64,000 nucleotides of DNA from Yuukianura sp. NJ FZ-2021 (taxonomy: Eukaryota), in contig CM102287.1 of NCBI GenBank assembly GCA_046563655.1, positions 2,852,001 through 2,916,000 of the forward strand. Reading direction: 5' to 3'. Below the pieces are notes generated by a model. That model searched no databases and was not told the DNA's origin. It worked only from the letters and a program-made list of their open reading frames with translations. Both the position numbers and the translations under genes were made by a program. This document shows, piece by piece, positions 20,719-43,102 of the stretch. Position 1 is the first letter of the stretch, and each line of letters begins with the position of its first letter.

Positions 20719-22557
20719 ATGTAAGAATTTGACTAGATTTTCGAAATTTTAGAAAAAGTTGATTGGTTTGGATTTGGACTGAAATTTTTTGTTATAGGCT
20801 GCTCCGCCATTTTGTTTTGGCGTATAATCGCTTGAGACGAAGAGTCGTTCGAGAAACGCTCGGAAGTTACCGATGGATCGTCAGACGGAAGGAGATTCCC
20901 TTGTAAATAATCAATTGAACTTGATGAAGATAATCGATTAATTCCAATGACTGTAAATCTTTTAGCTTCGTGTTGGCCAGTGGACTGCTCTCGACGGAAG
21001 CCAAGATGGAAGGCCGAGCAGAAGGATTAGCAAAAACCGTGGAAGCGTTTATGGCTGAACCGTTGACCGGTCGTGACAAGCTGTCCGACACCTCGACTGA
21101 CATGAAGGCTCGAATGGAGTTACTTATTATGAGGATCCAGGTTAGTAATCAATCGTTAATCAATTCCTGGACTACTACTTTAATCAATTAGTTGATGCTG
21201 AAGCGTAATTTACTAAACGTTTTGAAACGTTTCTACTCAGAAACAAGTCTGCCAGGCTCTGGAGGCTGAAGAGACCGAATTTGACGTCAAGTTCGTAACA
21301 GATCGTTGGACTCGCGAAGAAGGCGGTGGTGGAATCACTTGTATCATTCAAGATGGCCATGTCTTTGAGAAGGCGGGCGTCAACGTATCAGTTGTCCACG
21401 GTGTACTGCCACCAGCAGCAGTTGCTCAAATGAGATCCAGGTAACGTTAGCCGCCATTTTCAAAATTTTTTACTTACATCCTGGATTCTGAATCCAGGAC
21501 TTCAAGTTTTCCAACCATTTTTTCAGAGGAAAAGACTTGGAAGGAGAATCACTTCCGTTCTACGCCCTTGGAATCAGTTCAGTAATTCACCCTAGGAATC
21601 CATACGTCCCTACTATTCACTTCAACTACAGATACTTTGAAGTGGAGACTTCTAAGGGTACACAATGGTGGTTCGGTGGTGGAACTGACCTCACTCCGTA
21701 CTATCTCAACGACCAAGATGTTGTCCACTTCCACAGTCAGCTGAAGAAGGCTTGTGATAAGCACGATAGTTCCTATTATCCAAAGTTCAAGAAATGGTGT
21801 GACAATTACTTCAGAATTCCACATCGCGGTAAGAAAACTTCAAACATAATTGTAGATTTCAAAGATTTCCAAAAAAAAATGTGCAATTCGCAACTTTTCC
21901 TTTGGTTTTAAGATTTGTTTAGATTTGTAAGACAATTTTGTTTTGTTTTAGATGAATCCAGAGGCGTTGGTGGAATCTTTTTTGACGACATGGATTACCC
22001 TAACAGAGAAAAAGCATTTCAGTTTGTCACTTCCTGTGCAGAAGCTGTGATACCTTCNNNNNNNNNNNNNNNNNNNNNNNNNNNNNNNNNNNNNNNNNNN
22101 NNNNNNNNNNNNNNNNNNNNNNNNNNNNNNNNNNNNNNNNNNNNNNNNNNNNNNNNNCTTCTTATCTACCCCTAGGTAAACACTAACTTTTTTGAGATTT
22201 TTCAAAATTTCGAAACTTCTTTTTGAATTTTCAGTGAAAAAGCACAAGAATGATGGTTATGGTTACAAGGAGCGACAGTGGCAACTTTTACGACGTGGCC
22301 GCTACGTGGAGTTCAATTTGGTCTACGACCGCGGCACAAAGTTTGGACTCTACACGCCCGGAGCTCGTTACGAAAGTATTCTAATGTCGCTTCCACTAAC
22401 TGCTGTAAGACGATTTTCAAAAAACATCAAAATTTCGAAAAATTTCATTTTTTTTTTTCAATTTTTGCAGAAGTGGGAGTACATGAATGTCCCAACGGAA
22501 GGAAGCCAAGAGTACAAAATTACGCAGATTTTGAAAAACCCGAAAGAGTGGGTCTAA
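20719..22557 (+). CDS. CPOX: Oxygen-dependent coproporphyrinogen-III oxidase, mitochondrial
   Basis: Hallmark motifs [68 protein letters not shown] and [20 protein letters not shown]. Arg-rich presequence [19 protein letters not shown]. Confidence 0.97.
22058..22157. other. Assembly gap (100 N), probably a false gap
   Basis: The flanks overlap by CTTC. Merging them restores the CPOX peptide AVIPSYLPLVKKH. Confidence 0.85.
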
Positions 22558-23099: not shown

Positions 23100-24571
23100 A
23101 TGACTTCTTTTATGGACACATCGGAAACTCCAGGTTAGTTGCCAACTGTAATTGTCACCTTTCACCTCAAATTTTTGCTAATCCTTGATTTTTTGTTTGA
23201 AATTTTGTAGTTGACGCAGCAGCAACTTCTGTTGACGCAGCAGGAACTTCTGTTGGTGCAACAGGAACTGGAACCAAACGCAAACTGAGTGAATACGAAC
23301 CAGAAGAAGTTGACCATTGGCTGTCCAGTGACATGGTTCGTGACACAAGTAACCTGCACTGGGTCATCTCCAACTACGCCTCCTACCATCAAACAGCCAA
23401 TCGCGTCATTCGATCTCAACTTTTCACTGCTGGTCGTCACGTCAAGCATCTCTTTCAGTTGACAGTACTTCCTCGTCAAGAGTTCAATGGCCTCGAATAC
23501 TTCGGAATTCACCTTCGACTGGTCGCCTTTGCCAATGAACACAATCAGAAGAAGCAGAACGTCAATCCAGTCAATGACGTCCCAGAAGACGTCAAACGTC
23601 AACTCCAAGTGACATTCCAAGTGACTCTTCTTGACGCGAATGACGAAAAGCGTCATCAGACGACTGGATACAGCTTGATCAGCAAAGGAGTGATTACTGG
23701 ATGGGATCAGCTCGTTTTTGCTAACATCGTCGACGAACTGGCCGAATCTGACGGAAAACTCCGAATTCTGTTTAGAATCTGGATAGATATGGACACGAAA
23801 TTGAAGCAAGGCGACGGCCAGCCAGTCGCCGCTGTCAACGACATTGGTCATGCGCTGATCAAACGCGTATGTCGCCAAGCAAAGTCGGATGACGACACTG
23901 ATCTTACGCGCCAAAGTCAAGAGGAGGAGGAGGAGGCTCAAGGTCAAGGTCAACTGGACAATGCACCAATCAGTGACCCCGAGGTCAAGATTCCAGGAAA
24001 TTTTCCATTTGGATTCGGGGTTGGACGAATGTCGCTCGGATTGGTGCCAAAAATGCTGCCGAACTTGGTTCCTCGCGTGGACACTACAAGCGATGCTTTT
24101 CAGCGATCACAATCGCTGAAAAACTACTTGGGAGCTGACAAGGTCGATCCGAAAACGGAGGCAGTCGTGAATCAAATTTTCTTGGCGTATCAATTGAGCC
24201 ACAAACTTCCGAAATTTGACGCGCGAAAATATGGAGTCGGCGTTTTACGACGAGCAGAAAATTGTGGACTTCCTGCCATGAAGAAGATGGTAGAACAGGA
24301 ACTCATTTCGGCGTTGACAGTGGAAAATGCTGCCAATTTTTTCCTGCATGGAGATCTTTACAATTCGACCGAATTGAAATTTGGCGCGCTGCACTTCATG
24401 CTTGTAAATCGTGCCGGAGTGGAGGCAACTCCAGCGTTCCAGAAAGTGCTGGAGCTTGATCCGGGACTCAAAATGTGGTTTCGGCCAGAACCGAAGAAGA
24501 AACCGGAACCGGAAACCAAACCGGTACAGGGACAGACCAATCAGGAAGCGGAACTGGACTACTACTCTTAA
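23100..24571 (+). CDS. MATH-domain protein with degenerate BTB and BACK-like C-terminus (array gene 1)
   Basis: Exon 1 at 23100-23133, exon 2 from 23211. MATH-like LHWVISNY...IRSQLF...YFGIHL...GWDQL...DGKLRI. C-terminal helices LKKMVEQELISALTVENAANFFLHGDLYNSTELK-type, resembling SPOP. Confidence 0.7.
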
Positions 24572-24896
24572 ATTTTCAAAAAAGTTTCAAAAATTTCAAA
24601 AACTTACAATAATCAAAATCACATTTTCATATTCTACTATTCTTAAATTATCCTAAACGTACGTTTTCCAAAAATGTCAAAAAATCATTAAAAGTGTGAA
24701 CAATAAATTTACAAAAAAAGAAATCTTACCTCTTTTTTTAAATTTTATTTTTTCCCCTTTAGTTCGAAACGATTTTTTCTGTGGTAACCTTTTTTGAAGT
24801 TTGTTTTCACTTTTTCAAACAAAATTTCGAAAAAATTTTTTAACGTCTTTGGATCAGTTTGTCGTGAGGAATTTGTTGGAATTTCAAGGTCATCGC

Positions 24897-27778
24897 ATGA
24901 AGTACGGCGTTGTTGGAGAAGACATGGACGAAAGAATGTCAGAAGCTGAGAACTCTACGACCGTTTTGGAAGGTGAGAATTTCAAAAAATTCCTTTTTTT
25001 AAGTTTCCAAATTTTGAAATTTGTTTTGGTTTTAGTACGTGAGAAAAGGAAAGCTGACGTGCTTGATGCTGCAGATGTCGACATGTGGATGTCCACTAAA
25101 GTTGTTCATGACAACTACGTCTTGCACTGGAACATCGGCGACATTCGGAATGTCGCCACTCACCATTCCATCAAATCACCACTTTTCAGAGCAGGGTACC
25201 ACTTCCAGCACATTTGGGAAGCCGAGGTCACTCCAAATGAAATCCAAGGTCAAATGTACCTTGGGGTCAAGGTCAAACTGATTGCTTTTCAGCATTGGGA
25301 GGACGAATCAGCAATGGACGCTGGAAGACAACTGAAAGTGTCGCTGGACGTGTCCATTGTAGACAAACAAGAAAAAGTGTGTCACGGACTGCATGGGTTA
25401 GAAAAAATTTCACAATTTCGAACATTTCAAAATTTTAAGGTCAAGGACAAAGGTCAATTTTCAAAAAAATTTTGATTTTGACTTAGGACTAAGTACGTCA
25501 ACAAAGGCGGGAGTGTTGGATGGCCGGAGTTTCTGAAGGTCGATGACCTTGACACCGTTGTGCAGCAGAACGGCGACCTTCGACTGCTGGTCAGCATCAC
25601 AATTGAACTGGACACGCACATCCAAGGTCAAGAGGTCACGCAAGGTCATCCACCTCTATTCAAGAAAACATGCATCCGCCAATGTCTGAACAGTCATGAA
25701 GGTCACGAGGTCAATGACCCCGGAAAGGTCAATGACCCCGGAACTAAGCTTTCTGCTCCAAAAGAAGACTCTCCGCATTTTCGAGCTCCGAATTTGAAAA
25801 ACTACTTTTGGAAACTGGGCGACGAAGAGCCAGATTTTGAAATCCGGAGTCAGAGCAAAACGAATCTGCACGTTCACAAGTCAATGTTGCTCAGAAAGAG
25901 CGGTTTTTTGCAAAAATATTTGGAACAAGACGGAATGCGATCTGGTGGTTATCTTTGTAACACCCAAATCCTCAAAATCATTCTGGACTTCATGTACACT
26001 GGAAAAATCGCTGAAGATGTTCTAACACAACACGCTAAAAAGATTTTTGAATACTGCCACCATTATATAGTTCCAGAACTCCAAGTTTTGGCTGAAGAAG
26101 TGCTGCTGAAAAGCGTCTGTGCTGAAAATGCTGTCGATTTGTGGTACATTAGACATCATAGCGACAAACTGGAGCCAAAAATCCTTGAAATTTTTAAGCA
26201 AAATCCACACAAATTTGAGCCTTTTTACCAAGAAAGGTTCAACGAAGAGCTGAAACGGAGAGGTCAAGAGGTCGTTGACCTCACCGTGACCTCCGATGAC
26301 GACATTTCAGCGCCACCGTGGTACGAAGACGACAGCGGTGTCGTTTGGAAACACGGTGACGAGGAACCAGATTTTGAAATCATCACGTGGGAAACTACCA
26401 AAAAGAGTTTCAAAGTGCACAAATCCGTTTTGGCTTCAAAAAATACTTTTTTCAAAAAACATTTCGAAAACGGTCCAGCACATCAACAAGACTCAATTGA
26501 ATTTGAACCAGGTCATCCTCCAGCAGCATTGAAAATGATACTGGATTTCATCTACACTGGAAGAATCGATGAAGCAGCGATTCGGAACAACGCTGCACTC
26601 ATTTTCAGTTTTGGAGATCGCTGGGAAGTACCGGAACTCAAAAACTTGGCAGAAGAGTTTCTGCTGGATACCGTTTCGGCCGAAACGGTACCCGAACTTT
26701 GGTGGGAGGCTGAATGCGGAAACGGTACGAAACTGATGGCCAAAATTACCGAGTTCGTCCAGCTTCATCCGGATGAATTTTGTCCAGAAGATTTGGATTG
26801 GTTGAAACGCAAGTTAAATCTCGGCGGTGACGAGTTCAATGATTGGCCAGTGTTCCAGGTAATATGATCAAAAGCAATTTGGTCAAAAAGTGAAAAGGTC
26901 AAAAAGGGAGATCAAACATAAGAAAAAATATAAACAAGCCTAGCCTATTAATAGTAATCGTTGCCATTTTCAGTTTGTGACTTTTTCACTTTTTGATCAA
27001 ATAAGTGTTTGACCTTTTCTTTTTTTAATAAAATAATTTTGAGCGTTTCACTTTTTAATGAAATAATTTTGACCTTGTCACTTTTTGATCATATAATTTT
27101 GACCTTTTCAGTTTTTGATCAAATAGTTTTGACCTTTTCACTTTTTGATTTTTTCACTTTCTGACCTTTTCAATTTTCGACCTTTTCACTTTTTGATCAA
27201 ATAATTTTGACCATTTGACCTTCTAGGATTGGCCACTGGGTGACGAACCACCGGATTACGAAATCGTCACTCTCAAAGGAAAACAAAAATTTCTGGTGCA
27301 CAAGTCCGTTTTGGCACAAAAGAGCGTCTATTTCAAAAAGAATTTTGAAAATGGTCCATTTTCTCATCAGAAGAGACACACACGAAACGTATCTCCGGAA
27401 ACCATCAGAGCAGCGCTGGATTTCATGTACACTGGAACAATCGCTGGAAATTTCCTGGAGAGTGGACATGAAAATGTTGAAGAGTTGTTTGAATTGGCTG
27501 AAGACTGGAAGTGGGGAATTCCTGAACTGCGGATTTTGGCAGAAGAGGCGATGGTCAAGTACGTCTGTGCAGAAACCGTGTTCAAATGGTGGTTCAAGTG
27601 GAGACCAAATGCACCAACACTCAAAGCAAAAGTTTGTGAGTATGCGCAGCAGCATCCAGAACAATTTGCCATTGGGTGTCAAAAGTACTTCGGAGATATT
27701 CGGCAGCAGGAGCAACAGTACTGCGTCGGTCCAGAGGTAAAGCCCCCTGGTGAAGGAAATGGAAATCAAAACGCCTAA
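24897..27778 (+). CDS. MATH-BTB-BTB-BTB protein, SPOP-like Cullin-3 adaptor family (array gene 2)
   Basis: Four exons. MATH (LHWNIGDIR, IKSPLF, YLGVKV, GWPEFL, NGDLRL) followed by three PDF/YEI...VHKS.L...LDF.YTG BTB units. The last unit follows intron 26859-27226. Confidence 0.85.
26850..27226. mobile_element. TIR element forming a spliceosomal intron (copies also at about 30126-30483 and 35430-35751)
   Basis: Flanked by the direct repeat GATTGGCCA (26841-26849 and 27227-27235). Imperfect terminal inverted repeats. Internal tandem unit of about 30 bp, TTTTGACCTTTTCACTTTTTGATCAAATAA. Confidence 0.7.
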
Positions 27779-28079
27779 CATTTTGAAATTCTAAAAAAAT
27801 CCAAAAATTTCAAAAACTTTAGCACAATTTCCAAGTTTAAAAAGAAAGTGCTCAAAAAGTGTCAATTTATCGTGAAAATAAAAAAAAATCATTGAAAAAA
27901 AAATCCATTCATTTTTTAAAACTGTTTTATTGACAACAGTTTCATGGACATTTGAAATTTGTTTTCATTTTTTCAAACAATTTCGAAAATTTCGAAAATT
28001 TTGGTCAGTTTGTTGGTCAGAAACTGTCGTAGCAGCAACTTTTTTTTCTCATTTGGGAATTACGAGGTCAAAGGTCAAC

Positions 28080-31047
28080 ATGAAGTTCGGCGCTGTCGAA
28101 GACGAATTGCAAGAAAGAATGTCAAAAAGCGAGGAGTTGACGACCGTTTTGGAAGGTGAGAATTTCAAAAAACTTTTTTTAAGTTTCGAAATTTTGAAAT
28201 TTGATTTTGGTTTTAGGAGGAAAGCGGAAAGCTGATGTCCTTGATGCTGCCAATGTTGATGCTTGGATGTCCACTGAAGTTGTTCGTGACAACTATGTGT
28301 TGCACTGGAACATCAAGGACATTCGGAATGTCGCCAGTCACGACACCATCAAATCACCACTTTTCAGAGCTGGGCGACACTTCCAGCACATTTGGCAAGC
28401 AGAGGTCACTCCAACGGAAATCCAAGGTCAACAGTACTTAGGGGTCACCGTGGCACTGGTTGCCTTTGGCAACGAATCAGCGCTGGACGCTGGACGACAA
28501 CTGAAAGTATCTCTGGACGTGTCCATTGTGAATAAAGAAGAACAAGTTTGTCATGGACAACATGGGTTAGAGAAAAATTTCAACATTTTCAAAAAAGGTC
28601 AAGGTCAAAGATCATTTTCAAAAAAAAATGTTTTGATTTTTGAAAATTTAGGACTGATTTCATTGGGAAAGGGGGAAATCTCGGATGGCAGCATTTCCTG
28701 AAAGTGGATGACCTTGACCCCGTCCTTCAGCAGAACGGTGACCTTCGACTGCTGATTGGCATCACAATCGAAATGGACACGCAAATCCAAGGTCAAGGTC
28801 ACGAGGTCACGCAAGGTCAACAACATCCGTCCAAGAAAACATGCATCCGCCAATGTCTGAATCGTCAGGAAGGTCACGAGGTCAGTGACCCTGGAAAGGT
28901 CAATGACCTCGGAAAGGTCAATGACCCCAGAACTAACATTTCTGCTCCAGAAGAAGACTCTGCGCATTTCCGGACACCGAATTTGAAAAGCTGCATTTGG
29001 AAACTTGGCGAACAAGAGCCAGATTTTGAAATTCGAAGTCAAAGCAGAACGAAATTGCTTGTGCACAAGTCAATGTTGGCCAAAAAGAGCGGTTTTTTGC
29101 AAAAATACTTTGAACAAGGAGGTCGAGACGGAGTAATGTCTGGTAGTTATCTTTCTAATACCGAAATACTCAAAATCATTCTGGACTTCATCTACACTGG
29201 AAAAATCGCTGAAAGCGTTCTATCACAACATGCTAAAAAGATTTTTGAGTACTGCCACCATTATGTTGTTCCAGAACTTCAAGTTTTGGCTGAAGAAATG
29301 CTGCTGAAGAGCGTCTGTGCTGAAAATGCTGACGATTTGTGGCGTATCCAGGGAAGTGACAAATTGGAGACAAAAATTCTTGAAATTTTTAGGCAGAATC
29401 CACAAAAATTTGAACCTTTTTACCAAGAAATGTTCAGCAATGAGCTGAAACGGAGAGGTCAAGAGGTCGATGACCACAGCGACTCTTGTTCCTCCGTCAA
29501 TGACGACTCTTCTATCTCTGATGACGACTCTTCCTTTCATGACGACTCGTCTTCCGTCGATGAAGACGACATTCCAGCGCCACCGTCGTACGAAACTGAC
29601 AACGGATTTGTGTGGGAACACGGTGACGAGGAGCCGGATTTTGAAATCATCACGTCGGAAATTACCAAAACGAGTTTCAAAGTTCACAAATCCGTTTTGG
29701 CTTCAAAAAATGCTTTTTTCAAAAAACTTTTCGAAAATGGTCCAGCACATCAGCAAGACTCAATCGATTTCGAACCAGGTCATCCTCCAGCAGTAATGAA
29801 AACTATACTGGATTTTATCTACACTGGAAAAATTGACGAAGCAGCAATTCGGAACAACGCTGCATTCATGCTTTATTTTGGCCATGACTTGGAAATACCG
29901 GAACTCAAAAACTTGGCAGAAGAGTTTCTTGCGGATACCATTTCGGCCGAAGCCGAAACGATATTCTATCTTTGGTGGGACGCTGAATGCCACGACGGTA
30001 AGAAACTGATGGCCAAAATTACCGAGTTCGTTCAGCTTCATCCGGACGAATTTTGTCCAGAAGATTTGGATTGGTTGAGACGCAAGTTAAATCTGGACGG
30101 TGCTGACGAGTTCAATGATTGGCCAGTGTTCCAGGTAATATGATCAAAAGCAATTTGGTCAAAAAGTGAAAAGGTCAAAAAATGAGATCAAACATAAGAA
30201 AACGCTAAACAAACATAGCCAATTAATTGTAATGGATGCCATTTTCAGTTTTTGACCTTTTCACTTTTTGATCAAATAAGTGTTTGACCTTTTCTTTTTT
30301 TAATGAAATAATTTTGACCTTTTCAATTTTTAATAAAATAATTTTGAGCGTTTCACTTTTTAATGAAATAATTTTGACCTTGTCACTTTTTGATCATATA
30401 ATTTTTACGTTTTCAGTTCTTGATCAGATAATTTTGACCTTTTCACTTTTTGATCAAATAATTTTGACCATTTAACTTGCTAGGATTGGACACTGGGTGA
30501 CGAACCACCGGATTACGAAATCGTCACTTTGAAAGGAAAACAGAAATTTCTGGTGCACAAGTCCGTTTTGGCACAAAAGAGCGCCTTTTTCAAAAAGAAT
30601 TTCGAAAATGGTCCATTTTCTCATCAGAAGAGAGACGTTCGCAACGTATCTCCAGAAACACTCAGAGCAGCGCTTGATTTCATGTACACTGGAACAATCG
30701 CTGAAAGTTTTCTGGAAAGTGGACATGAAAATGTTGAAGAGTTGTTTGAATTGGCGGAAGACTGGAAGTGGGGAATTCCGGAACTACGGAATGTGGCTGA
30801 AGAGGCGATGCTGAACTACGTCTGTGCAGAAACAGTGTTCAAATGGTGGTTCAAGTGGTGGAGAGATCAGGCGCCAAAATTGAAATCAAAAGTTTGTGAG
30901 TATGCGCAGCAGCATCCAGACCAATTTGTCATTGGGTGTCAAAAGTACTTCGGAGATATTCGGCAGCAGGAACAGCTCGCATCGAACAGCGTCGGTCCAG
31001 AAGTGGAGCTCCCGGCTGGTGACCAAAACGGAAATCCAACAGCCTAA
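28080..31047 (+). CDS. MATH-BTB-BTB-BTB protein (array gene 3)
   Basis: Same exon structure as gene 2, with a Ser/Asp repeat linker between BTB1 and BTB2. The third BTB follows intron 30135-30483. Confidence 0.85.
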
Positions 31048-31588
31048 CATTTTGAAATTCTAAAAACTACTAAAAAAACTAAAAAAAAAGCACTAAAAAT
31101 TTCAAAAACTTAACATTTCAAAGAAGTGTCAATTAAGTGTGTTATAACAATAATAAAAAGTAAACAATAATAAATACAGCGAGCAGCGTCGGTCCAGAAG
31201 TGGAGCCCCCTGGTGAAGGAAATGGAAATCAAAACGCCTAACATTTTGAAATTCTAAAGAAAATCCAAAAATTTCAAAAACTTTAGCACAATTTCCAAGT
31301 TTAAAAAGAAAGTGTTCCAAAAAGTGTCAATTTATCGTAAAAATAATTTAAAAAAAAATCATTTATAAAAAAAATCGCTTCGTTGTAACATTCATTTTTT
31401 AAAACTTTGTCTATTGACAACAGTTGCTCGGAAATTTCAAATCTGTTTTCATTTTTTCAAACAAAATTTTGAAAATTTTATTTGGTTAGAAACTGTCGTG
31501 TAGCAGCAACATTCTTTTTCATTTAGAAATTTCTAGGTCAAAGCTCAACATAAGGTTCGGGGCTGTCGAACACGATTTGGACGAAAGA

Positions 31589-32951
31589 ATGTCAGAAAGC
31601 GGGGAGTTGACGACCGTTTTGGAAGGTGAGAATTTCAAAAAACTTTTTTCCAAATTTTGAAATTTGATTTTGGTTTTAGGAGGGAAGTGGAAAGCCAGTG
31701 TGCTTGATGCTGCCAATGTGGATGCTTGGATGTCGACTAAGGTTGTTCGTGACAACTATGTCTTGCACTGGAACATCAGCGACATTCGGAATGTCGCCAG
31801 TCACCATGCCATCCAGTCACCACTTTTCAGAGCAGGGCGACACTTCCAGCACATTTGGCAAGCCAACGTGACAATCCAGGAAATCCAAGGCCAAATGTAC
31901 TTAGGTGTCACCGTGGAACTGGTTGCCTTTGGCAACGAGTCAGCGCTGGACGCTGGACGACAACTTAAGGTGTCCCTGGACGTATCCATTGTGGACAAGG
32001 AAGAAACAGTGCGTAATGGCCTCCATGGGTTAGAAAACATTTCAAAATTTTGAGGTCAAGGTCAAAAGTCATTTTCAAATTTTTTTTTTCTCGAAATTTA
32101 GGACCGATTTCATTGGCGAAGGGGGAAATCTCGGATGGCAGAAGTTTTTGGAAGTGAATGACCTTGACCCCGTTCTTCAGCAGAACGGTGACCTTAGGCT
32201 CCTGATTGGCATCACAATTGAAATGGACACGCACATTCAAGGTCAAGGTCAAGAGGTCACCAAGGTCACGGAAGGTCAATCACCACCATTCAAGGAAGCT
32301 TGCACCCCTTGGCTGATGTCTCCGCAAGGTCGCGAGGTCAATGACCCCGGAAAGGTCAATCACCTCGGAACTAAGCTTTCTGCTCCGAAAGAAGACTCTC
32401 CGCATTTCCGGGCTTCGAATTTGAAAAACTACTTTTGGAAACTGGGAGACGAAGAGCCAGATTTTGAAATCCGAAGTCACAGCAAAACGAATCTGCACGT
32501 TCACAAGTCAATGTTGGCTAAAAAGAGCGGTTTGCTACAAAAATACGTCGAAGAAGGAAGAATGTCTTGTCATTATCGTTGTAACACCCAAATCTTCAAA
32601 ATCATTTTGGACTTCATCTACACTGGAGAAATCGCTGAAGATGTTCTGCAGCAACACGCTAAAAAGCTTTTTGAATACTGCCACCATTATGTAGTTCCAG
32701 AACTTTATGTTTTGGCTGAAGAAGTGCTCCTGAAGAGCGTCTGCGCTGAAAATGCAGATGATTTTTGGTTCATCCAGGGACGCAATGACAAACTGGAGAC
32801 GAAAATTCTCGAAATTTTTAAACAGAATCCGCAAAAATTTATTCCTTGTCGACAAGAAATGTTCAACAATGAACTGAAACGGAGAGGTCAAGAGGTCGTT
32901 GACCTCAAAAATTTCACTGAAGACATTTCAGCGCCACCGTCGTACTCGTAA
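31589..32951 (+). CDS. MATH-BTB protein, truncated paralog or possible pseudogene (array gene 4)
   Basis: The paralogous ATG is ATA at 31550, with an in-frame ATG at 31589. One BTB, then a jump directly into the 3'-end sequence (ACCAAAACGGAAATCAAACCGCC), which implies deletion of BTB2 and BTB3. Confidence 0.65.
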
Positions 32952-33385
32952 CCAAAACGGAAATCAAACCGCCTTAACATTTTGCAATTCTAAAAAAAAG
33001 AATTAAAAATTTGAGAAAAGTAAAACATTTAAAAAAAGTGCTAATTTATCATAAGATTAATGAAAAATAAACTAAAACTTTCCTTTTTCAATTTTACGTT
33101 CGCAGTACATACCGGTTTTTCAAATTTTTCAACCTAACCTGCTTATGGCAGGTGAATGTTTTAGGCAATATTTCAAAATAAACTAAAAGTTTTGAGGAAA
33201 AAAAAAACTAATTTTCAAAAATTGTTTCCTAGGCTATGGTTTTTTGAACAATTGAAAATTGTTTTCACTTTAAAATTTCGTGCCTATTTTTGTCAGTTGC
33301 TCAGGAACATCTTATTTCGTACGAGCAAGATCTTTCCTGTATTTTGCATTTGCATTTTATGTAATTTTAAAGGTCAAAGGTCAAC

Positions 33386-36297
33386 ATGAGATACGGAGTG
33401 AGCGATACCGAGTTGGATCAAGGAACGGCAGAAACCGACGAATTTCCGACAGTTCTGGAAGGTGAATCCGAATTTCAAAAAAAAAACTTTTTTAGTTTCG
33501 AAATTTTGAAATTTGATTTTGGTTTTAGGCGGGAAGAGGAAAGCTGATGTGCTTGATGCTGCCAATGTTGATGTTTGGATGTCCACAAAAGTTGTTCGTG
33601 ACCACTACGTCTTGAACTGGAATATCAGCGACATTCGGAATGTCGCCAGTCACGACGCCATCAAATCACCACTTTTCAGAGCAGGGCGACACTTCCAGCA
33701 CATTTGGGAAGCCGAGGTCACTCCAACGGAAATCCAAGGTCAAATGTTTCTTGGGGTCAAGGTCAAACTGATTGCTTTTCAGCATTGGGAGAACCAATCA
33801 GCGATTGACGCTGGACGACAATTGAAGGTGGCCCTGGACGTGTCCATTGTGGACAAACAAGAAAAAGTGTGTCATAGACTCCACGGGTTAGAAACAATTC
33901 AAAATTTCAACAATTTCAAAATTTTAAGGTCAAGGTCAAAGGTCATTTTTTCAAAAACGTTGGTTTTTTGAAATTTTAGAACTGACTATGTTGACCAAGG
34001 TGGAACTGTTGGATGGCCGGAGTTTCTGAAGGTCGATGACCTTGACTCCATTGTACAGAAAAACGGTGACCTGCGACTCCTGATTGGCATCACAATTGAA
34101 ATGGACACGCACATTCAAGGTCAAGGTCAAGAGGTCACCAAGGTCACGCAAGGTCATCCACCACCATTCAAGAAAACATGCATCCGCCAATGTCTGAACA
34201 GTCATGAAGGTCACGAGGTCAATGACCTCGGAAAGGTCAAAATGACCCCGGAAAGGTCAATGACCCCAGAACTAACGTTTCTGCTAAAAAAGAAGACTCT
34301 CCGCATTTCCGGACTCCGAATTCGAAAAACTACATTTGGAAACTGGGCGACGAAGAGCCAGATTTTGAAATCCGGAGTCACAGCAAACAGAATTTGCACG
34401 TTCACAAGTCAATGTTGGCCAAAAAGAGCGGTTTTTTGCAAAAATACTTTGAACGCCGAGGGCAAGACGGAATACTGTCTGGTAGTTATCGTTTTAACAC
34501 CCAAATCCTCAAAATCATTCTGGACTTCATCTACACTGGAAAAATCGCTGAAAACGTTCTACAACAACACGCAAAAAAGCTTTTTGAATACTGCGACCAT
34601 TATGTAGTTCCAGAACTTTATGTTTTGGCTGAAGAAGAGCTGCTGAAAAGCGTGTGCGCTGAAAATGCAGATGATTTGTGGTTCATCCAGGGACGCAGTA
34701 ACAAACTGGAGACGAAAATTCTTGAAATTTTCCAGCAGAATCCACAAAAATTTCATTCTTTTCAACAAGAAATGTTCAACGATGAGCTAAAACGGAGAGG
34801 TCAAGAGGTCATTGACCTCAAAAATTTAACTGGCGACCGACTCTTCCTTCGATGACGGCTCGTCTTCCGTCGATGACGACGACATTTCAGCGCCACCGTC
34901 GTACGAAAATGACAGCGGCGCTGTGTGGAAACACGGTGACGAGGAGCCAGATTTTGAAATCATCACGTGGGAAACTACCAAAAAGAGTTTCAAAGTTCAC
35001 AAATCCGTTTTGGCTTCAAAAAATACTTTTTTCAAAAAACATTTCGAAAATGGTCCAGAACATCAACAAGACTCAATTGAATTTGAAGAAGGTTATCCTC
35101 CAGCAGCGGTGAAGATTACACTGGATTTCATCTACACTGGAAAAATTGACGAATCAGCGATTCGGAACAACGCTGCAGATATGTTCAATTTTGGAGATCG
35201 CTGGGAAGTACCGGAACTCAAAAACTTGGCAGAAGAATTTCTTCTGGATACCGTTTCGGCCGAAACGATATTCGACCTTTGGTGGGAAGCTGAATGCGGG
35301 AACGGTACGAAACTGATGGCCAAAATTACCGAATTCGTCCAGCTTCATCCGGACGAATTTTGTCCAGAAGATTTGGACTGGTTGAGACGCAAGTTAAATC
35401 TGGACGGTGATGAGTTCAATGATTGGCCACTGTTTCAGGTAATATGATCAAAAGCAATTTGGTCAAAAAGTGAAAAGGTCAAAAAGTGAGATCAAAACCT
35501 ATATCAAACAAACCTAAGCTACTTATTGTTACGGTTGCCAGTATCCCTTGCTAACCTTTCCACTTTTTGGTCTTTCTACTTTTTGACCTTTCACTTTTTG
35601 ATCAAATAATCTTAACCTTTGCACTTTTTGAGTAGATAATTTTTACCTTTTCACTTTTTGATTAAATATTTTTGACCATTTCACTTTTCGATCAAATAAT
35701 TTTGACCCTTTCACTTTTTGATCCAATAATTTTGACCATTTGTCCTGCTAGGATTGGCCACTGGGTGACGAACCACCGGATTACGAAATCGTCACTTTCA
35801 AAGGAAAACAGAAATTTCTGGTGCACAAGTCCGTTTTGGAACAAAAGAGCGCCTACTTCAAAAAGAATTTTGAAAATGGTCCATTTTCTCATCAGAAGAG
35901 AGACACGCGCAACGTTACCCCAGAAACACTGAGAGCAGCGCTGGATTTCATGTACACTGGAACAATCGCTGGAAATTTCCTGGAAAGTGGACATGAAAAT
36001 GTTGAAGAATTGTTTGAACTTGTGGATGACTGGAACTGGAACATTCCTGAACTGCGGAATGTGGCAGAAGAGGCGATGCTGAACTACGTCTGTGCAGAAA
36101 CAGTGTTCAAATGGTGGTTCAAGTGGTGGAGAGATCAGGCGCCAAAATTGAAATCAAAAGTTTGTGAGTATGCACAGCAGCATCCAGACCAATTTGCCAT
36201 TGGTTGTCAAAAGTACTTCGAAGATAGACGACAGCAGCAGTACGGCGTGAGTCCGGAAGTGGACGAAAATCAAAACGACTCCAATCAAACAGCCTAA
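33386..36297 (+). pseudogene. Frameshifted MATH-BTBx3 paralog (array gene 5)
   Basis: A +2 insertion at about 34240 (GGTCAAAATGACC vs GGTCAATGACC) leads to a stop at 34605-34607. A +1 insertion sits at about 34837. All domains are otherwise intact. The indels could be assembly errors. Confidence 0.65.
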
Positions 36298-36623
36298 CAT
36301 TTTGAAAAAAAAAAATTTCTAAAAAAAAAGTCAAAATATTTAAAAACTTACTACAATTTAGAAGTTTAAAAAAATGTCAACTTATCATAAGAATAACGAA
36401 AAATAAATCAAACTTTTTTTTTGAATTTTCTTCGTAGTAGGTTTTTTTCTGAACTGTTTCCTTGACAACGGTTTTTTGAACAAATTGAAGTTTGTTTTCA
36501 CTTTTTCAAACAAGATTTCGAAAAGTATGTGCAAATTTCTTGTTTTTGATCAGGTCGGTCGTCAGAAACTGTCGTAGCAGCAACATTCTTTTTCATTTTG
36601 GAATTTCGAGGTCAAAGGTCAAC

Positions 36624-38477
36624 ATGAAGTTCGGCGTTGTCGAAAACGATTTGGAGCAAGGAACATCTGAACCTGACGACTTATCGGCAGTTTCGGAAGG
36701 TGACCTTGAATTTCATAAAAAAAAACTTTCAAGTTTCGAAATTTTGAAATTTGATTTTGGTTTTAGGAGGGAAGCGGAAAGCCAGTGTGCTTGATGCTGC
36801 CAATGTGGATGTTTGGATGTCGACTGAGGTTGTTCGTGACAACTATGTAATGCACTGGAACATCAACGACATCCGGAATGTCAAAGGTCACGGCGCCATC
36901 AAATCACCACTCTTCAGAGCAGGGTACCACTGCCAGCACATTTGGCAGCTCAAGGTCACTCCAAAGGAAATCCAAGGTCACAGTTACCTGGGGGTCAAGG
37001 TCATACTCGTCGCTTTTGCCAACGAATCAGCGATGGACGATGGGCGTCAACTGAAGGTGTCCTTGGACGTGTCCATTGTTGACAAAGAGGAAAAAGTTTG
37101 TCACGGACTCCAAGGGTTAGAAAAAATTTCAAAATTTCAAGAATTTCAAAACTTTAAGGTCAAGGTCAAAGGTCATTTTTCAAAAAACTTTGATTTTGAT
37201 TTAGAACTGACTATGTCAACAAAGGCGGGAGTGTTGGATGGCCGGAGTTTCTGAAAGTGAATGACCTTGACTCCGTCGTACAGGAAAACGGCGACCTTCG
37301 ACTGCTGGTTGGAATCACAATTGAAATGGACACGCACATTCAAGGTCAAGGTCAAGAGGTCACCAAGGTCACTCAAGGTCAACAACCTCCGTCCAAGAAA
37401 AGTTGTGTCCGCGACATTTCAAAAGGTCACGAGGTCAATGACCTTGAAAAATCCAAAGCATCTGACACTGCTGACATTTGGAAACGGGGTGACGAGGAGC
37501 CAGATTTTGAACTCATCATGAAAGATGATGACGACAACGAGCGACGTTTCAAAGTTCACAAATCGGTTTTGGCGGGAAACAGTTTTTTCAAAAAACACTT
37601 CGAATCAGGTCCAGCCGACGAGCAAGCATCCATGTGCTTGGCAAGTATCCATCCAGTAGGAATGAAAGTCATACTGGAATTTCTGTACTACGGAGAACTC
37701 GATGAGCATCTAATTCGTGTCAACCCGGAGCACTTTTTTGAATGGGGGGCAGTACTGGAAGTTCCAGAAATCAAGGAAATCGCTGAAAATGTGCTGGCGG
37801 ACAGCATTTCCGCTGAAAATGTACTTGATCTTTACTTCAGCGCTGACGACTACCATGGATCCAAACTACTGGACAAAGTGATTGACTTTGTGAAAAATCA
37901 TGCTGATCAATTGTCACCCTACGATCGACATGTGTTGGAAGATGAGTTGCGTCTTGGAAAACATCACGAGGTCACTGACCTCGTGACCTTTGACTACTTG
38001 GACCAACCCACAGACTACGAAATTGTTTCTTGGAATGTCAAATTCCTCGTTCACAAGCACATTTTGGCGGAAAAGAGCAATTTTTTCAAAAAAAAGTTTG
38101 AAGTTGGAAAACTGTCGGAACAGAAGACACTGGACGCACGTTCGGCAGGCCGAGACGCAATCAAGGCCGCTCTTCAGTTCATGTACACTGGAAGTGTGAC
38201 GCTGGAAGAGCTGGAGAAATGCTGGAAGTATCCTATGCATGTATTTCGACTTGCAGAGCTCTGGGAACTGGAGGAATTCAAAAATCGTTTCGAAGAATCG
38301 CTTCTTCAGGATTACATCTGTGCAGAGAACGTGTATTACTGCTACTCTGCGCTGGGCTATCATGCGCCGAAGTTGGGAGCGCGAGCTGCCGAGTATGCGC
38401 AGCAGCATCCAGAACAATTTACAACTGCTGTGCTCAACTACTCTGATTACCTTCGCCAAACCAATTTTCTAACCTAA
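36624..38477 (+). CDS. MATH-BTB-BTB protein (array gene 6)
   Basis: MATH exons as in genes 2-5. Two BTB units (PDFELI...FKVHKSVLA...LEFLYYG and TDYEIV...FLVHKHILA...LQFMYTG) lie in one uninterrupted exon. Confidence 0.85.
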
Positions 38478-38715
38478 AATTTCGAAATTTCCAACGCCAA
38501 AACGATTTTCAAAATATTTTCATCTTCTAAACCTTGTATTTTTTCAAGCTTAAATTAAATATAAACAACACGATTTAAAACAAAAATTGATTTTGTAAAT
38601 TATAATAAAACTTTGAAAATAATTTATAAATGAAATAAAAACAAAAGTAATTTCAAAATTTCGAATTTTTAAAAGTCAAAAGATTTTATAAAACTATTTT
38701 ATATTGTAATTGTTA

Positions 38716-39008
38716 AATAGGGAGTTTGCGTTTCAAATCATTTATAGAATTTATAGAAAGTAGAATTTAGCAAGTCCCGCCCCTTTTAACACCCCTCCAC
38801 CCGTCTTGTTACGCCTCTCGTGATTGGTCGATTTCAAATCCGTGATGCCACTTTCCAAACTTTTTTCATTTATGGCATTTATGGCGTGCTTATAAATTTT
38901 GAACATCTGAAAAGTTTAAAAAGTGACGTCACTTCTCACCGTAAATTCTATACTTTCTATAAATTCTATAAATTAGTAATTAAAAAAAAATTACACAAAC
39001 TCCCTATT
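38716..39008. mobile_element. MITE-like element of about 290 bp
   Basis: 13-bp terminal inverted repeat AATAGGGAGTTTG / CAAACTCCCTATT, plus an inner inverted pair TTTATAGAATTTATAGAAAGT / ACTTTCTATAAATTCTATAAA. Confidence 0.7.
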
Positions 39009-39257
39009 ATAATGTATTTTATTTTATAAAACTTGCGTTCTATTAAAAAATAGTTCTTACAACATAATTAATTTTTCTTCCATTACTTTTGATTCCCTTG
39101 ACAACTATTTTTTTGAAACGTTGATTTGTTCAAACAAGTTTCGAATTTTTTTTTTCGATTCGTTGATATCGTCGTCAGTTGAAATTAGCAGCGGTACGAG
39201 CAGCATCATTTTTAGTTCGTCTCTCCCACCGACAAAACAAACCGGTACTGAAACAAA

Positions 39258-40651
39258 ATGAAACACGACGGCGGCAGCAGCGGTGAAGATCTGAATCATG
39301 GAATGTCGACGATTTTGGAAAGTAAGTTTGAATTTGAAATTTAAACTAATTTTTGAAAGTTTTTTTTTGGTTTTCCAACTTTGAAATTTCAATTTTGGTT
39401 GCAGGAAGTGGAGTAAAACGGGACTCCAGTGAATTGGACCAGCCTTCGGTCGCTGACGATTTGGTGTCACCGGAATCCGTTGAAGGTCAAGGTCAAGGTC
39501 AACCTCCGCCATCCAAGAAAAGTCGTGTCAGCGATGACACTGAAGAGGTCAATGACCCCGAGAGGTCAAGTTCAGTTGACTCTGAAGATCCGGCAAGTGA
39601 CAACGACGACTACATTTGGAAAGTTGGAGATGAAACTCCAGATTTCGAAATTGTGACCACCGAAGACCGAATTTTGAAAGTACAAAAGTCGATCCTGGCA
39701 GAGCGAAGTACTTTTTTCAAAAATCATTTTGAATCAGGACCGGCAGATCAACAAGATCAAGTTCGTTTTGATGGAATCCATCCACAAGCGATGAAAATCA
39801 TTTTGGATTTTATCTATTTTGGAAAAATCAGCCATGAAGAAGCGATTCGCCGAAATGCAGAGTTGATGTTCAAGTATGCCCACCGATTTGAAGTACAGGA
39901 GCTCAAAAATTTCGCTGAAAATGTGCTGGTGGACAGCGTAACGGCCGAAAATGCGCTGGAACTTTACCGAATCGCTGAAAGCTGCGAAGGAGCTCGATTG
40001 TTGGCAAAAGTGTCTGATTTTTTCAAGAATCATGCTGATGATATGTCTCCAGAAGAAAGAGAAGTTCTGGAATATGAGATGGAAATTGCAGATGAAGAGG
40101 CGTCGCGTGACCTCGTGAACTTCGAACACTCAAGTGGACCGCCAGATTTCGAAATTTTGTCTTGGAGTTCCAAATTTTTGGTGCATCAAGCAGTTTTGAC
40201 ACAGAAGAGCGAATACTTCAAACATTATGTCACGTTGCCTGGTGCACAGTCACTGCGCACGTTCGGAACACCTTCGGAAATAATCAAGCCCGTGCTGGAC
40301 TACTTGTACTCCGGAGAGGTCAAGCAAGATGACCTTGAAAAGTTGGGGTCAAATCCGGACGAAGTGTTTCGTCTTGTGGACTCTTGGGAACTGCAGGAAT
40401 TTAAGGATCTGTTTGAACAGTCGCTGATCAACCGCGTCTGCGCAGAATCAGTTTTCAAACTTTGGTGGGTCGCAAGATGCAACGATGCACAGAAGTTGAA
40501 GGCAAAAGCAGAGGACTTCGCAGCACAAAATCCAGCAGCATTTTCTATTGGTTGTCAAAAATACTTCGATGACAAGCGGAAAACTCTCAACCCAGAAGTT
40601 GCTAAAGATGGTGACAACAACAATCAAAATGAATCAAACTCAGACGTCTAA
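39258..40651 (+). CDS. BTB-BTB protein without a MATH domain (array gene 7)
   Basis: Homologous short exon 1 (MKHDGG...STILE). Exon 2 runs from the KR-containing N-terminus straight to the QGQGQPPPSKK linker and then two BTB units. Confidence 0.8.
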
Positions 40652-41249: not shown

Positions 41250-43102
41250 ATGAAGTTTTTCGTAAGTTGCGCAGTCGTTTTAGGAGTTCTAAGCTTTGCA
41301 CATGCGCGTCGCTGGAAAGGGCCCAATGACAAGGCTTACGGCTCTGTTTTAGAGTCTCCGAGTGTGACGAACTGGGGCACCCCGGGGCAATTCGAACTCT
41401 GTCCAACAGGAAAAGTAGTCAAAGGTTTCACTCTAAAAGTGGAACCACGACGCAGGCGTATTGACAACACGGCCCTGAATGGAATTGCATTTTTGTGTGG
41501 CGCGCCTACGGCGCAACTTCCTGATAACCCTCAGTATATTGCCAGTAAAGAGGGAATGTTTGGCCAATGGGGGCCACTGAGCAACTGCAGTGCCGGCTCC
41601 TATGCAGTTGGATTTCAACTGATGTCGCAAGAGCCTCAAGGGCCATTTGGAGATGACGTGGCAGCGGTAAATTTGAAATTGATTTGCGCCGATGGCGCGG
41701 AATTGGAAGGATATGCTGAGGATGAGGAATATCCAGACAGTTACTACACTGAGGCTCAGTTGTGTCGTCCTGGAAGGGCGATTTGTGGACTCCAGACACA
41801 AGTAGAAGAGTATCAGCGATTGAGTATGTAAAGCGTGAGAAAATTTAAAAAAAGTTTAAAATCAATTTGAACGTTTGATTTTCTTAGCCGATTTTGAAAA
41901 TTGTGATTTTTTTGGTGTAAAAAGGTGACGATACGGCCCTGAACAACTTGAGAGCTTACTGCTGCAACGTTCTCAAGGCTCGACCAACTTTGGTTCCTTC
42001 TACAGAGCAGACGCAGACTGAAGCAGAGGTGACCACACCTACTGCGCAGGTCACAAGCACTTCAGCATCACTTCCGAGTGAAATTGTGACTGAGAATCAG
42101 GAAACGTCCAGTGCGTCTGTGCAAGAAAGTACTGTTGCAACAGAAGGAATTCCTGAAAATGTAGTCGGCTCTTCTACTCAAAGCACTGCTGAATCCACTC
42201 CTGTAACTGAAGCTAGCGTCCCAGTTGAGCCAATTCCAACAGAATCCGTTGCATCAACAGAATCAGTTACAACAGAACCAGTTGCATCAACAGAGGCAGT
42301 TGCAACAGAATCAGTTACAACAGAACCAGTTGCATCAACAGAAGCAGTTGCAACAGAATCAGTTACAGCAGAACCAGTTGCATCAACAGAAGCAGTTGCA
42401 ACGGAATCAGTTACAGCAGAACCAGTTGCATCAACAGAAGCAGTTGCAACAGACTCAGTTGCAACAGAATCAGTTACAGCAGAACCAGTTGCATCAACAG
42501 AAGCAGTTGCAACAGAATCAGTTCCAACAGAACCAGTTGCATCAACAGAAGCAGTTGCAACAGAATCAGTTCCAACAGAACCAGTTGCATCAACAGAAGC
42601 AGTTGCAACAGAATCAGTTCCAACAGAACCAGTTGCATCAACAGAAGCAGTTGCAACAGAATCAGTTCCAACAGAACCAGTTGCATCAACAGAAGCAGTT
42701 GCAACAGAATCAGTTCCAACAGAACCAGTTGCATCAACAGAAACAGTTGCGACAGAATCAGTTACAGCAGAATCCGTTGCCTCAACAGAAGTATCTTCAT
42801 CAACAGAAGTAGTTGTAACAGAATCAGTTGCATCAACAGAAATAAATTCAGCGACAGAACCCATTAGTCCTGCAGAAGTAGTTGTGTCAACAGAAGCAGA
42901 ATCTGCAACAGAAGCAATTTCATCAACGGAACAAGTTGCTCCAACAGACACAAGTTCAGGTCCTGAAGCCATTACTAGCTCAACGGAATCAAGCTCAGCT
43001 CCTGAAGCGATCGCTTCCACAGAACAGACTGCTCCAACAGAAAGTACTGCGACAGAACCAATTGCATCAACAGAAAAGAAACAGAAGCGATTAACTAATT
43101 GA
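41250..43102 (+). CDS. VMO1: Vitelline membrane outer layer protein 1-like (VOMI domain) with a mucin-like T/S/E/A repeat tail
   Basis: Signal peptide. VOMI motifs TNWGTPG, GFTLKVE, DNTALNGIAFLC, DDVAAVNLKLIC, AICGLQTQVE and DDTALNNLRAYCC. Intron 41824-41924. Tail of 15-aa TEPVASTEAVATESV repeats. Confidence 0.85.
42235..42845 (+). repeat. Coding tandem repeat with a 45-bp unit made of 15-bp subunits
   Basis: Unit ACAGAACCAGTTGCATCAACAGAAGCAGTTGCAACAGAATCAGTTCCA-type, roughly 12 copies. Confidence 0.9.

Follow-up and report, generated by a model that had tools for sequence, protein, structure and literature searches.

The window analysed here is a 64,000-nucleotide stretch of the genome of Yuukianura sp. 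NJ FZ-2021 (assembly GCA_046563655.1, contig CM102287.1, positions 2,852,001 to 2,916,000 of the forward strand), and it contains, at 23100-40651 on the plus strand, an array of seven paralogous genes (g1-g7; Table 1) that were modelled from homology and splice motifs and are oriented head-to-tail. We regard this array as probably being a lineage-specific springtail cluster of MATH-BTB genes derived from SPOP, in which the BTB domains have been duplicated internally and the intact proteins serve as multivalent adaptors. The assignment to an SPOP-derived family is sound. The array is not explicable by chance: units of the same type are 77-90% identical at the protein level. When the spliced g3 protein was compared with the whole window using tblastn, all matches were confined to 23270-40648. 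Gene models, Pfam domains and tblastn all bear out the original prediction, which described a seven-gene tandem array of SPOP-like proteins with variable domain counts; the mechanism it put forward is supported only in part.

A separate start exon and a separate stop are present in every gene, all introns are of the GT-AG type, and an AATAAA or ATTAAA poly(A)-like signal is located 51-178 nt 3' of each stop. A Pfam scan of 17 open reading frame (ORF) pieces from the array placed BTB (PF00651) above the cut-off in 10 of them, giving 14 BTB domains (none in g1, three in each of g2, g3, and g5, one in g4, and two in each of g6 and g7), while four pieces matched no family; the architecture proposed earlier for each of the seven genes was confirmed. 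Four genes (g2, g3, g6, and g7) are intact, with long reading frames across two to four exons and conserved splice sites. The introns of g2 measure 63, 90, and 368 nt, and two of its BTB domains are found in exon 3 and one in exon 4. In g3, the linker between the first two BTB units (B1 and B2) is long and rich in Asp and Ser. In g7, exon 1 and a VKRD remnant directly abut a QGQGQ-PPPSKKS linker that is followed by the BTB units, and the MATH domain has been cleanly lost.

The order of elements in g1 is MATH, an acidic linker, and a vestigial BTB that retains only the C-terminal helices and the 3-box, and that matches only positions 78-137 of the 162 in the BTB-unit profile. The combination of a single MATH with a single BTB is seen only in g4, which is a deletion derivative: B2 and B3 are missing, and the frame ends where B2 would start and enters the family 3'-end sequence. 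The start codon of g4 is ATA, with an in-frame ATG located 13 codons downstream at 31589. Nucleotide alignments of g5 locate a +2 frameshift near 34237, where there is an insertion in an 18-nt repeat encoding VNDPGK, and a +1 frameshift near 34830; of the three BTB units, only B1 falls out of frame, and four stops interrupt the main frame. Probably, g5 is a pseudogene or encodes a MATH-only product. Rescue of g5 by an intron that skips the out-of-frame B1 (net shift +3) was considered and rejected, since the TTTCAG at 34884-34890 has no convincing donor. The genes had also been thought to share exon 1 and a KRK motif, and one of those with three BTB domains to be frameshifted. A common 76-nt exon 1 is indeed present in g2-g6, but the 34-nt exon of g1 is different and the 64-nt exon of g7 is only distantly alike. 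Likewise, KRK is found in five of the seven genes (g1, g2, g3, g5, and g6), but reads KWK in g4 and VKRD in g7, and the frameshifted gene, g5, has two shifts and not one.

Each BTB unit comprises approximately 160 residues, i.e., the BTB domain and the helices that follow it. The second unit of g2 aligns with SPOP through BTB and 3-box (E-value 1.7e-7, query 25-150). An AlphaFold2 model of g7 has two BTB-plus-helical units, with an overall predicted local distance difference test score (pLDDT) of 80.5 and values of 86-98 in both units, and its top Foldseek match is 3htm, “SPOP BTB/3-box” (template modelling score, TMt, 0.79; root mean square deviation, rmsd, 1.5 Å). Sequence alignment and the g7 model thus agree that these units are closest to the SPOP BTB/3-box, as had been proposed. 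A signature of the VHKSVLA type (H[KR]xVLA) is present in most of the 14 units. The ESM Atlas returned only generic BTB, MATH, and BACK clusters (scores 0.92-0.94). No GTPase domain was detected by Pfam in any array piece, and an N-terminal Rho GTPase of the RhoBTB type is therefore lacking.

For the N-terminal domain of g1-g6, profile searches and a structure model agree on the predicted MATH fold. All 21 matches (E ≤ 1) obtained when PDB was searched with a profile of the paralogues' N-terminal domains were SPOP MATH domains (best E 0.024). With a custom MATH profile built from seven MATH domains of library proteins, all confirmed by Pfam, g1-g6 score 12.0-24.8 bits, compared with 7.2 bits for the best of 700 shuffled controls, and g7 has no place among the 20 best of the 707 rows scored. 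The AlphaFold2 model was made for g1, whose MATH domain is encoded on a single exon. It features a β-sandwich at residues 38-198 (pLDDT 82-93) and an all-helical C-terminal region at residues 294-421 (pLDDT 90-98). Its top Foldseek match is full-length SPOP (E 1e-16), and chains with only the SPOP MATH domain match with TMt values of 0.69-0.79.

The array is under purifying selection, not overall diversification. Ratios of nonsynonymous to synonymous substitution rates (dN/dS) according to Nei-Gojobori are 0.20-0.29 for MATH (10 pairs), 0.24-0.44 for B1 (6), 0.25-0.48 for B2 (3), and 0.25-0.30 for B3 (3), and hence within 0.20-0.48 in all 22 pairs, with dS of 0.19-0.67. Four copies, g2, g3, g6, and g7, are both intact and constrained. 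The pieces of g5 are no less constrained than the other copies, and the damage to this gene is therefore recent or not disabling. At the positions of g2-g6 equivalent to the SPOP substrate groove, as judged from a weak alignment with SPOP and a tentative residue numbering, 4 of 9 are variable compared with 61 of 162 MATH columns, i.e., without enrichment. The suggestion that the family is rapidly diversifying is not supported by these pairwise ratios, nor by groove positions that are no more variable than the rest of MATH.

Within g2-g5, units of the same type are 77-84% (B1), 80-90% (B2), and 85-88% (B3) identical, compared with 34-42% between types. The units of g6 and g7 are diverged, with 44-51% identity for those of B2 type and 36-44% for those of B3 type. 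A maximum-likelihood tree, in which several branches were flagged as long, places all 14 window units in a single clade (100/100) separate from the units of other taxa, with subclades for B1 (100/99), B2-type (94/91), and B3-type (100/98) units. Repeats within the proteins of Daphnia, a midge, wasps, spiders, and nematodes each group by species. The BTB domains therefore multiplied inside this lineage, and did so independently in others.

Nucleotide self-comparison of the array yields blocks that are 74-87% identical and extend over introns and spacers; one of these blocks, found with blastn, pairs 27723-29478 with 31186-32907 (82%). The blocks stop at AGGTCAATGACCCCGGAA, an 18-nt repeat that encodes VNDPGK in the linker between MATH and BTB, and at both g5 frameshift sites; those ending at the shifts are 33349-34234, and 31527-32919 paired with 33363-34832. 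Between g3 and g4 there is an orphan copy of a B3 exon, comprising its last coding bases and 3' end, which is the relic of a duplication junction. The 5' half of g6 (to ~37450) is 74-82% identical to g2-g5 (MATH dS 0.43-0.67), whereas its BTB units are 29-46% identical to B2 and B3 of g2, g3, and g5, and the homology blocks with g6 end at 37443-37450. Judged from these sequence relationships, g6 is a chimera in which the 3' BTB half is far older than the 5' half. The block ends, the orphan 3' fragment, and the g6 chimera together are the hallmark of unequal crossing-over or gene conversion, with AGGTCAATGACCCCGGAA as a recombination junction as well as the site of the +2 shift in g5. The only long intron of the family, located between B2 and B3 of g2, g3, and g5, is filled by five to eight copies of the 30-nt tandem repeat TTTTGACCTTTTCACTTTTTGATCAAATAA, which includes TGACCT, the reverse of the AGGTCA half-site.

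These results show that duplications inside the protein turned a single ancestral BTB/3-box module first into the B2-type and B3-type units and later also into B1. The cluster then grew and was reshuffled by unequal crossing-over or gene conversion, with junctions at the short AGGTCA-rich linker repeats, and this reshuffling gave rise to forms with MATH and three, two, or one BTB, with two BTBs only, and with little more than MATH. The intact proteins would bind short peptide motifs via MATH and self-associate via their several BTB/3-box units, and in this way act as multivalent adaptors. A parallel is SPOP, which self-assembles through BTB and BACK and binds substrate multivalently (PMC12262686).

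AGGTCA, which is a nuclear-receptor half-site, ranks 14th in abundance among the hexamers of the window, with 140 occurrences on the plus strand, 85 of these within the array, and is densest at 24001-40000. The direct-repeat (DR1) form AGGTCAAAGGTCA has 25 occurrences with at most one mismatch, compared with 0.17 expected. It is located 2 nt (AC) upstream of the ATG of g3, g5, and g6 and of the ATA of g4, once in intron 2 of g2-g6, and also just before ATGs at 3941 (minus strand) and 61125. The palindromic inverted-repeat (IR1) form AGGTCAATGACCY occurs 29 times (0.16 expected), mostly in coding linkers. Elements of the AGGTCA type might have a regulatory role, belong to a genome-wide repeat, or serve only as a recombination substrate.

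Several observations weigh against a cluster of working SPOP-derived adaptors. MATH_2 is below the 32-bit Pfam cut-off in three of the ORF pieces (26.5, 21.2, and 17.8 bits; the best, with E 8.5e-6, is g3 exon 2 alone) as the domain is interrupted by an intron in g2-g6, and the E-values of the PDB profile search for MATH are weak. BACK_BPM_SPOP is not detected by Pfam in any unit, even at E ≤ 1. With the same weak alignment and tentative SPOP groove numbering, the equivalent of Y87 is K, T, or H, that of F102 is L or F, that of W131 is V, L, or T, and that of F133 is an invariant W. The four residues belong to the substrate groove of SPOP (PMC12262686). Three of the seven copies are damaged or reduced (g1 with its BTB stump, g4, and g5), and the g5 frameshifts and the lost ATG of g4 rest on one assembly, without reads. 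Finally, the phi-x-E motif, a large hydrophobic residue and a Glu, is found at the aligned columns in none of the 14 units, as established with three independent alignments, while the Glu is kept in all three outgroup SPOP-like BTB domains.

The phi-x-E motif is situated in the α3/β4 loop, and is preserved in all three solved BTB/Cul3 complexes, where it is the best-conserved Cul3 contact (Ji and Prive, PMC3616122). The corresponding columns are P-A-H or P-E-H in B2, P-F-S in B3, and a gap or G-x-D in B1, whereas in g6 and g7 the first unit has P-A-D and the second K-L-S and G-A-Q. The loop itself is conserved, with FENGP or FESGP in 8 of the 14 units and G-P in the same eight. The loss of the motif from all units leaves the claim of a Cullin-3 receptor system unsupported, and it touches the CUL3-binding surface, the absence of which the original prediction had itself named as evidence to the contrary. 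Because every unit has lost the canonical contact, the chances that the intact proteins still deliver substrates to Cullin-3, perhaps via weak multivalent contacts, seem about even; alternatively, they may be Cul3-independent scaffolds or competitors of canonical SPOP.

The latter alternative can be taken further, to a reading in which the BTB/3-box units serve only homo- or hetero-oligomerisation, the proteins are scaffolds or dominant-negative partners of SPOP, and MATH tethers clients without ubiquitylation. In this strict form we find it conceivable but rather unlikely. It would account for the loss of phi-x-E in 14 of 14 units from a loop that is otherwise conserved, for the retention of intact MATH-only (g1) and MATH-less (g7) forms, and for the constraint on the coding sequence. 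However, the 3-box helices, which raise the affinity of SPOP for Cul3 (PMC3616122), are predicted to be structurally present in the window units, and in g6 there are L-S-E and A-D-E sequences offset by one residue from the phi-x-E columns. Moreover, divergent MATH-BTB proteins of C. elegans still bind CUL-3, as shown for 5 of 46 (PMC1257465).

That the genes encode canonical, rapidly diversifying receptors of Cullin-3-RING ligases (CRL3), possibly directed against foreign proteins, with BTB pairing in the chain that mimics SPOP oligomers and with g7 as a decoy, is doubtful. In its favour, no solved structure is closer to either domain than SPOP, C. elegans and grasses have known expansions of MATH-BTB genes (PMC1257465, PMC4091423), and the adjacent BTB domains of RhoBTB may form an intramolecular dimer (PMC1257465). 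In addition, the paralogues differ at the equivalents of SPOP Y87, D130, and W131. Against this stand the dN/dS of 0.20-0.48 in every pair, the groove-equivalent positions that are not enriched for change (4/9 versus 61/162), and the absence of phi-x-E. The g7 model, with a predicted template modelling score (pTM) of 0.48, superposes on the tethered two-BTB chain 4u2m only at an rmsd of 16.9 Å, and therefore lends no support to a canonical intramolecular BTB dimer or to a single-chain mimic of SPOP oligomers.

A decaying and largely non-functional cluster of duplicates, made up of pseudogenes or genes being lost, is improbable. Such decay would fit the loss of the ATG and two BTB domains from g4, the two frameshifts and four in-frame stops of g5, the loss of half the BTB of g1, and the lack of close relatives in any library searched, but not the long intact frames of g2, g3, g6, and g7 over two to four exons with conserved splice sites, nor the dN/dS well below 1 in every domain, the g5 pieces included. 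One large gene with alternative exon cassettes of the lola/mod(mdg4) type, to which the head-to-tail units on the same strand might point, can practically be dismissed, since an ATG exon, a stop, and a poly(A)-like signal are present separately for every unit, and the copies of exon 1 are paralogous and not one common exon.

Table 1. Genes, domain units, and repeats of the array, in window coordinates
Feature	Position	Strand	Exons	Units and remarks
g1	23100-24572	+	23100-23133, 23211-24572	464 residues
21-nt repeat in g1, x2.9	23210-23269			
g2	24897-27778	+	24897-24972, 25036-25396, 25487-26858, 27227-27778	786 residues; MATH; B1 ~25809-26273; B2 26346-26858; B3 27227-27691
g3	28080-31047	+	28080-28155, 28217-28565, 28652-30134, 30484-31047	823 residues; MATH; B1 28998-29468; B2 29613-30134; B3 30484-30951
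Orphan B3-exon copy	31186-31240	+		between g3 and g4
g4	31550-32951	+	31550-31625, 31680-32028, 32102-32951	MATH; B1 only, 32436-32897 (one BTB by Pfam)
g5	33386-36297	+	33386-33461, 33529-33886, 33980-35438, 35752-36297	MATH; B1 34337-34810 (other frame); B2 34926-35438; B3 35752-36219
g6	36624-38477	+	36624-36699, 36767-37115, 37205-38477	565 residues; MATH; B2-type from 37479; B3-type from 37989; no intron between the two
g7	39258-40651	+	39258-39321, 39405-40651	436 residues; without MATH; B2-type from 39617; B3-type from 40121
AGGTCAATGACCCCGGAA, 18-nt coding repeat	25708-25743	+		MATH-BTB linker
AGGTCAATGACCCCGGAA, further copies	28879-28932, 32335-32370, 34216-34271			single copies at 37432 (g6) and 39546 (g7)
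TTTTGACCTTTTCACTTTTTGATCAAATAA, 30-nt tandem repeat	26978-27196 (g2), 30250-30478 (g3), 35581-35741 (g5)	+		B2/B3 intron

The window consists of animal-type DNA with short GT-AG introns and ~39% G+C. Upstream, the array is flanked by a coproporphyrinogen oxidase gene (to ~22560), and downstream by a gene for a VOMI-domain protein (from ~41250). A nearby exon of a DDI1-type protease is 83% identical to that of Allacma fusca, and 71-73% to those of Orchesella and Folsomia, which identifies the source as a springtail. A 100-N assembly gap (22058-22157) interrupts the upstream coproporphyrinogen oxidase gene, and the scaffolding of the assembly at this point is a reason for checking the g4 and g5 lesions against reads. 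The VOMI-domain gene extends over 41250-43102 (Pfam E 2e-38), and the next ORF has a 48-nt repeat, x12.6, that encodes a mucin-like stretch rich in Thr, Ser, Glu, Ala, and Val. Between g6 and g7, at 38716-39008, there is a foldback element or one resembling a miniature inverted-repeat transposable element (~293 bp), with nested inverted repeats of 16 nt (94% complementarity) and 23 nt (100%).

The activity of SPOP depends on self-assembly via two dimerising domains (PMC12262686), and proteins with two or three linked modules would constitute a natural experiment in this respect. With the Cul3-contact loop altered in all units, the array might reveal what valency and Cul3 coupling contribute to the function of an adaptor. 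It also offers a stepwise view of how unequal recombination at short linker repeats creates new architectures, including MATH-only and BTB-only forms, and, to judge from the unit tree, arthropods may have evolved comparable multi-BTB proteins on several occasions.

A HMMER search against 1.84 billion representatives gave 487 matches at E ≤ 0.001, six at E ≤ 1e-10, and none at E ≤ 1e-30, with identities of 20-35%. Among the 22 best matches, 19 have at least two BTB domains, 7 have MATH_2, and 13 have BACK_BPM_SPOP, for a query that itself had two BTB domains and thereby favoured multi-BTB targets. When 30 matches were looked up, the 22 that could be named came from spiders, a pseudoscorpion, parasitoid wasps, a midge, Daphnia, nematodes, an alga, and fungi; no springtail was among them, though the collection includes springtail proteomes. 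Word-indexed searches with g2 exon 3 (lengths 253-807) and the g3 B3 exon (102-328) found no close relative, and a metagenome DNA scan for relatives of the array produced 145 pattern matches, none of which was confirmed. Literature searches on tandem or multiple BTB domains and on MATH-BTB expansions retrieved RhoBTB, LZTR1, IBTK, and plant families, but no protein with MATH and three BTB domains among the entries listed; a search on springtails and BTB listed nothing relevant, and no paper was found on arthropod or nematode multi-BTB SPOP-like predicted proteins. The plant “2M2B” proteins were considered as a precedent and rejected, since their order is MATH-BTB-MATH-BTB and the BTB domains are not in tandem (PMC4923191).

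The best solved match for both domains is SPOP, known as roadkill (HIB) in Drosophila, a MATH-BTB-BACK adaptor of Cul3, although identity is only ~17-26%. The window proteins resemble SPOP in having an N-terminal MATH followed by BTB and predicted 3-box helices. Unlike SPOP, they carry as many as three BTB/3-box units in a single chain, none of the 14 units retains phi-x-E, BACK_BPM_SPOP is undetected by Pfam, and the groove residue equivalent to Y87 is non-aromatic. RhoBTB, LZTR1, and IBTK have two BTB domains per chain like the window proteins, but lack MATH and are not close in sequence; none of the three is found among the 22 best library matches scanned. Their substrate-binding parts are a Rho GTPase, Kelch, and ankyrin/RCC1, respectively. 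In RhoBTB, the adjacent BTB domains have been proposed to form an intramolecular dimer, and the first of them binds Cul3 (PMC1257465).

The BATH genes of C. elegans, the MATH-BTB genes of grasses, and the SPOP paralogues of rodents, which we take to be the TDPOZ genes, are like the array in being tandemly expanded, fast-diverged relatives of SPOP, each within a single lineage. Unlike the window array, these expansions have one MATH and one BTB per protein. Thomas is said to have reported in 2006 positive selection for nematode and plant MATH domains, in contrast to the pairwise dN/dS of 0.20-0.48 in the window array. The BATH genes account for 46 of 178 BTB proteins in C. elegans, and represent a lineage-specific MATH-BTB expansion (PMC1257465); expansion in grasses is described in PMC4091423, and the rodent SPOP paralogues are mentioned in PMC12262686.

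Architectural parallels are offered by predicted “SPOP-like” proteins of arthropods and nematodes with two to six back-to-back BTB units of the SPOP type, some of them starting with a MATH or MATH-like domain; examples are Fopius arisanus XP_011315182.1, Polypedilum vanderplanki KAG5671344.1, Uloborus diversus XP_054722585.1, Leptopilina heterotoma XP_043468167.1, Cotesia congregata CAG5075198.1, Oedothorax gibbosus KAG8192306.1, and Ditylenchus destructor KAI1712988.1. All are database predictions, and some may be fused gene models. The BTB units of the Oedothorax protein are nearly identical to each other. These proteins are only 20-31% identical to those of the window. In the unit tree their repeats group by species, from which it follows that each multiplication was independent. 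The pattern suggests repeated, independent BTB multiplication in spiders, wasps, and a midge or, in some cases, artefacts of gene models or assembly. We would only tentatively extend it to the proposal that multiplication of the SPOP BTB/3-box is recurrent in arthropods and nematodes, has gone furthest here, where MATH is joined to three BTB domains, and is coupled to loss of phi-x-E, with a new kind of MATH-based polymer or scaffold, or a SPOP antagonist, made from covalently linked BTB units, as the outcome in place of a Cul3 receptor. In comparison with these systems, the array departs from a well-known gene family in an unusual way, although not one without precedent.

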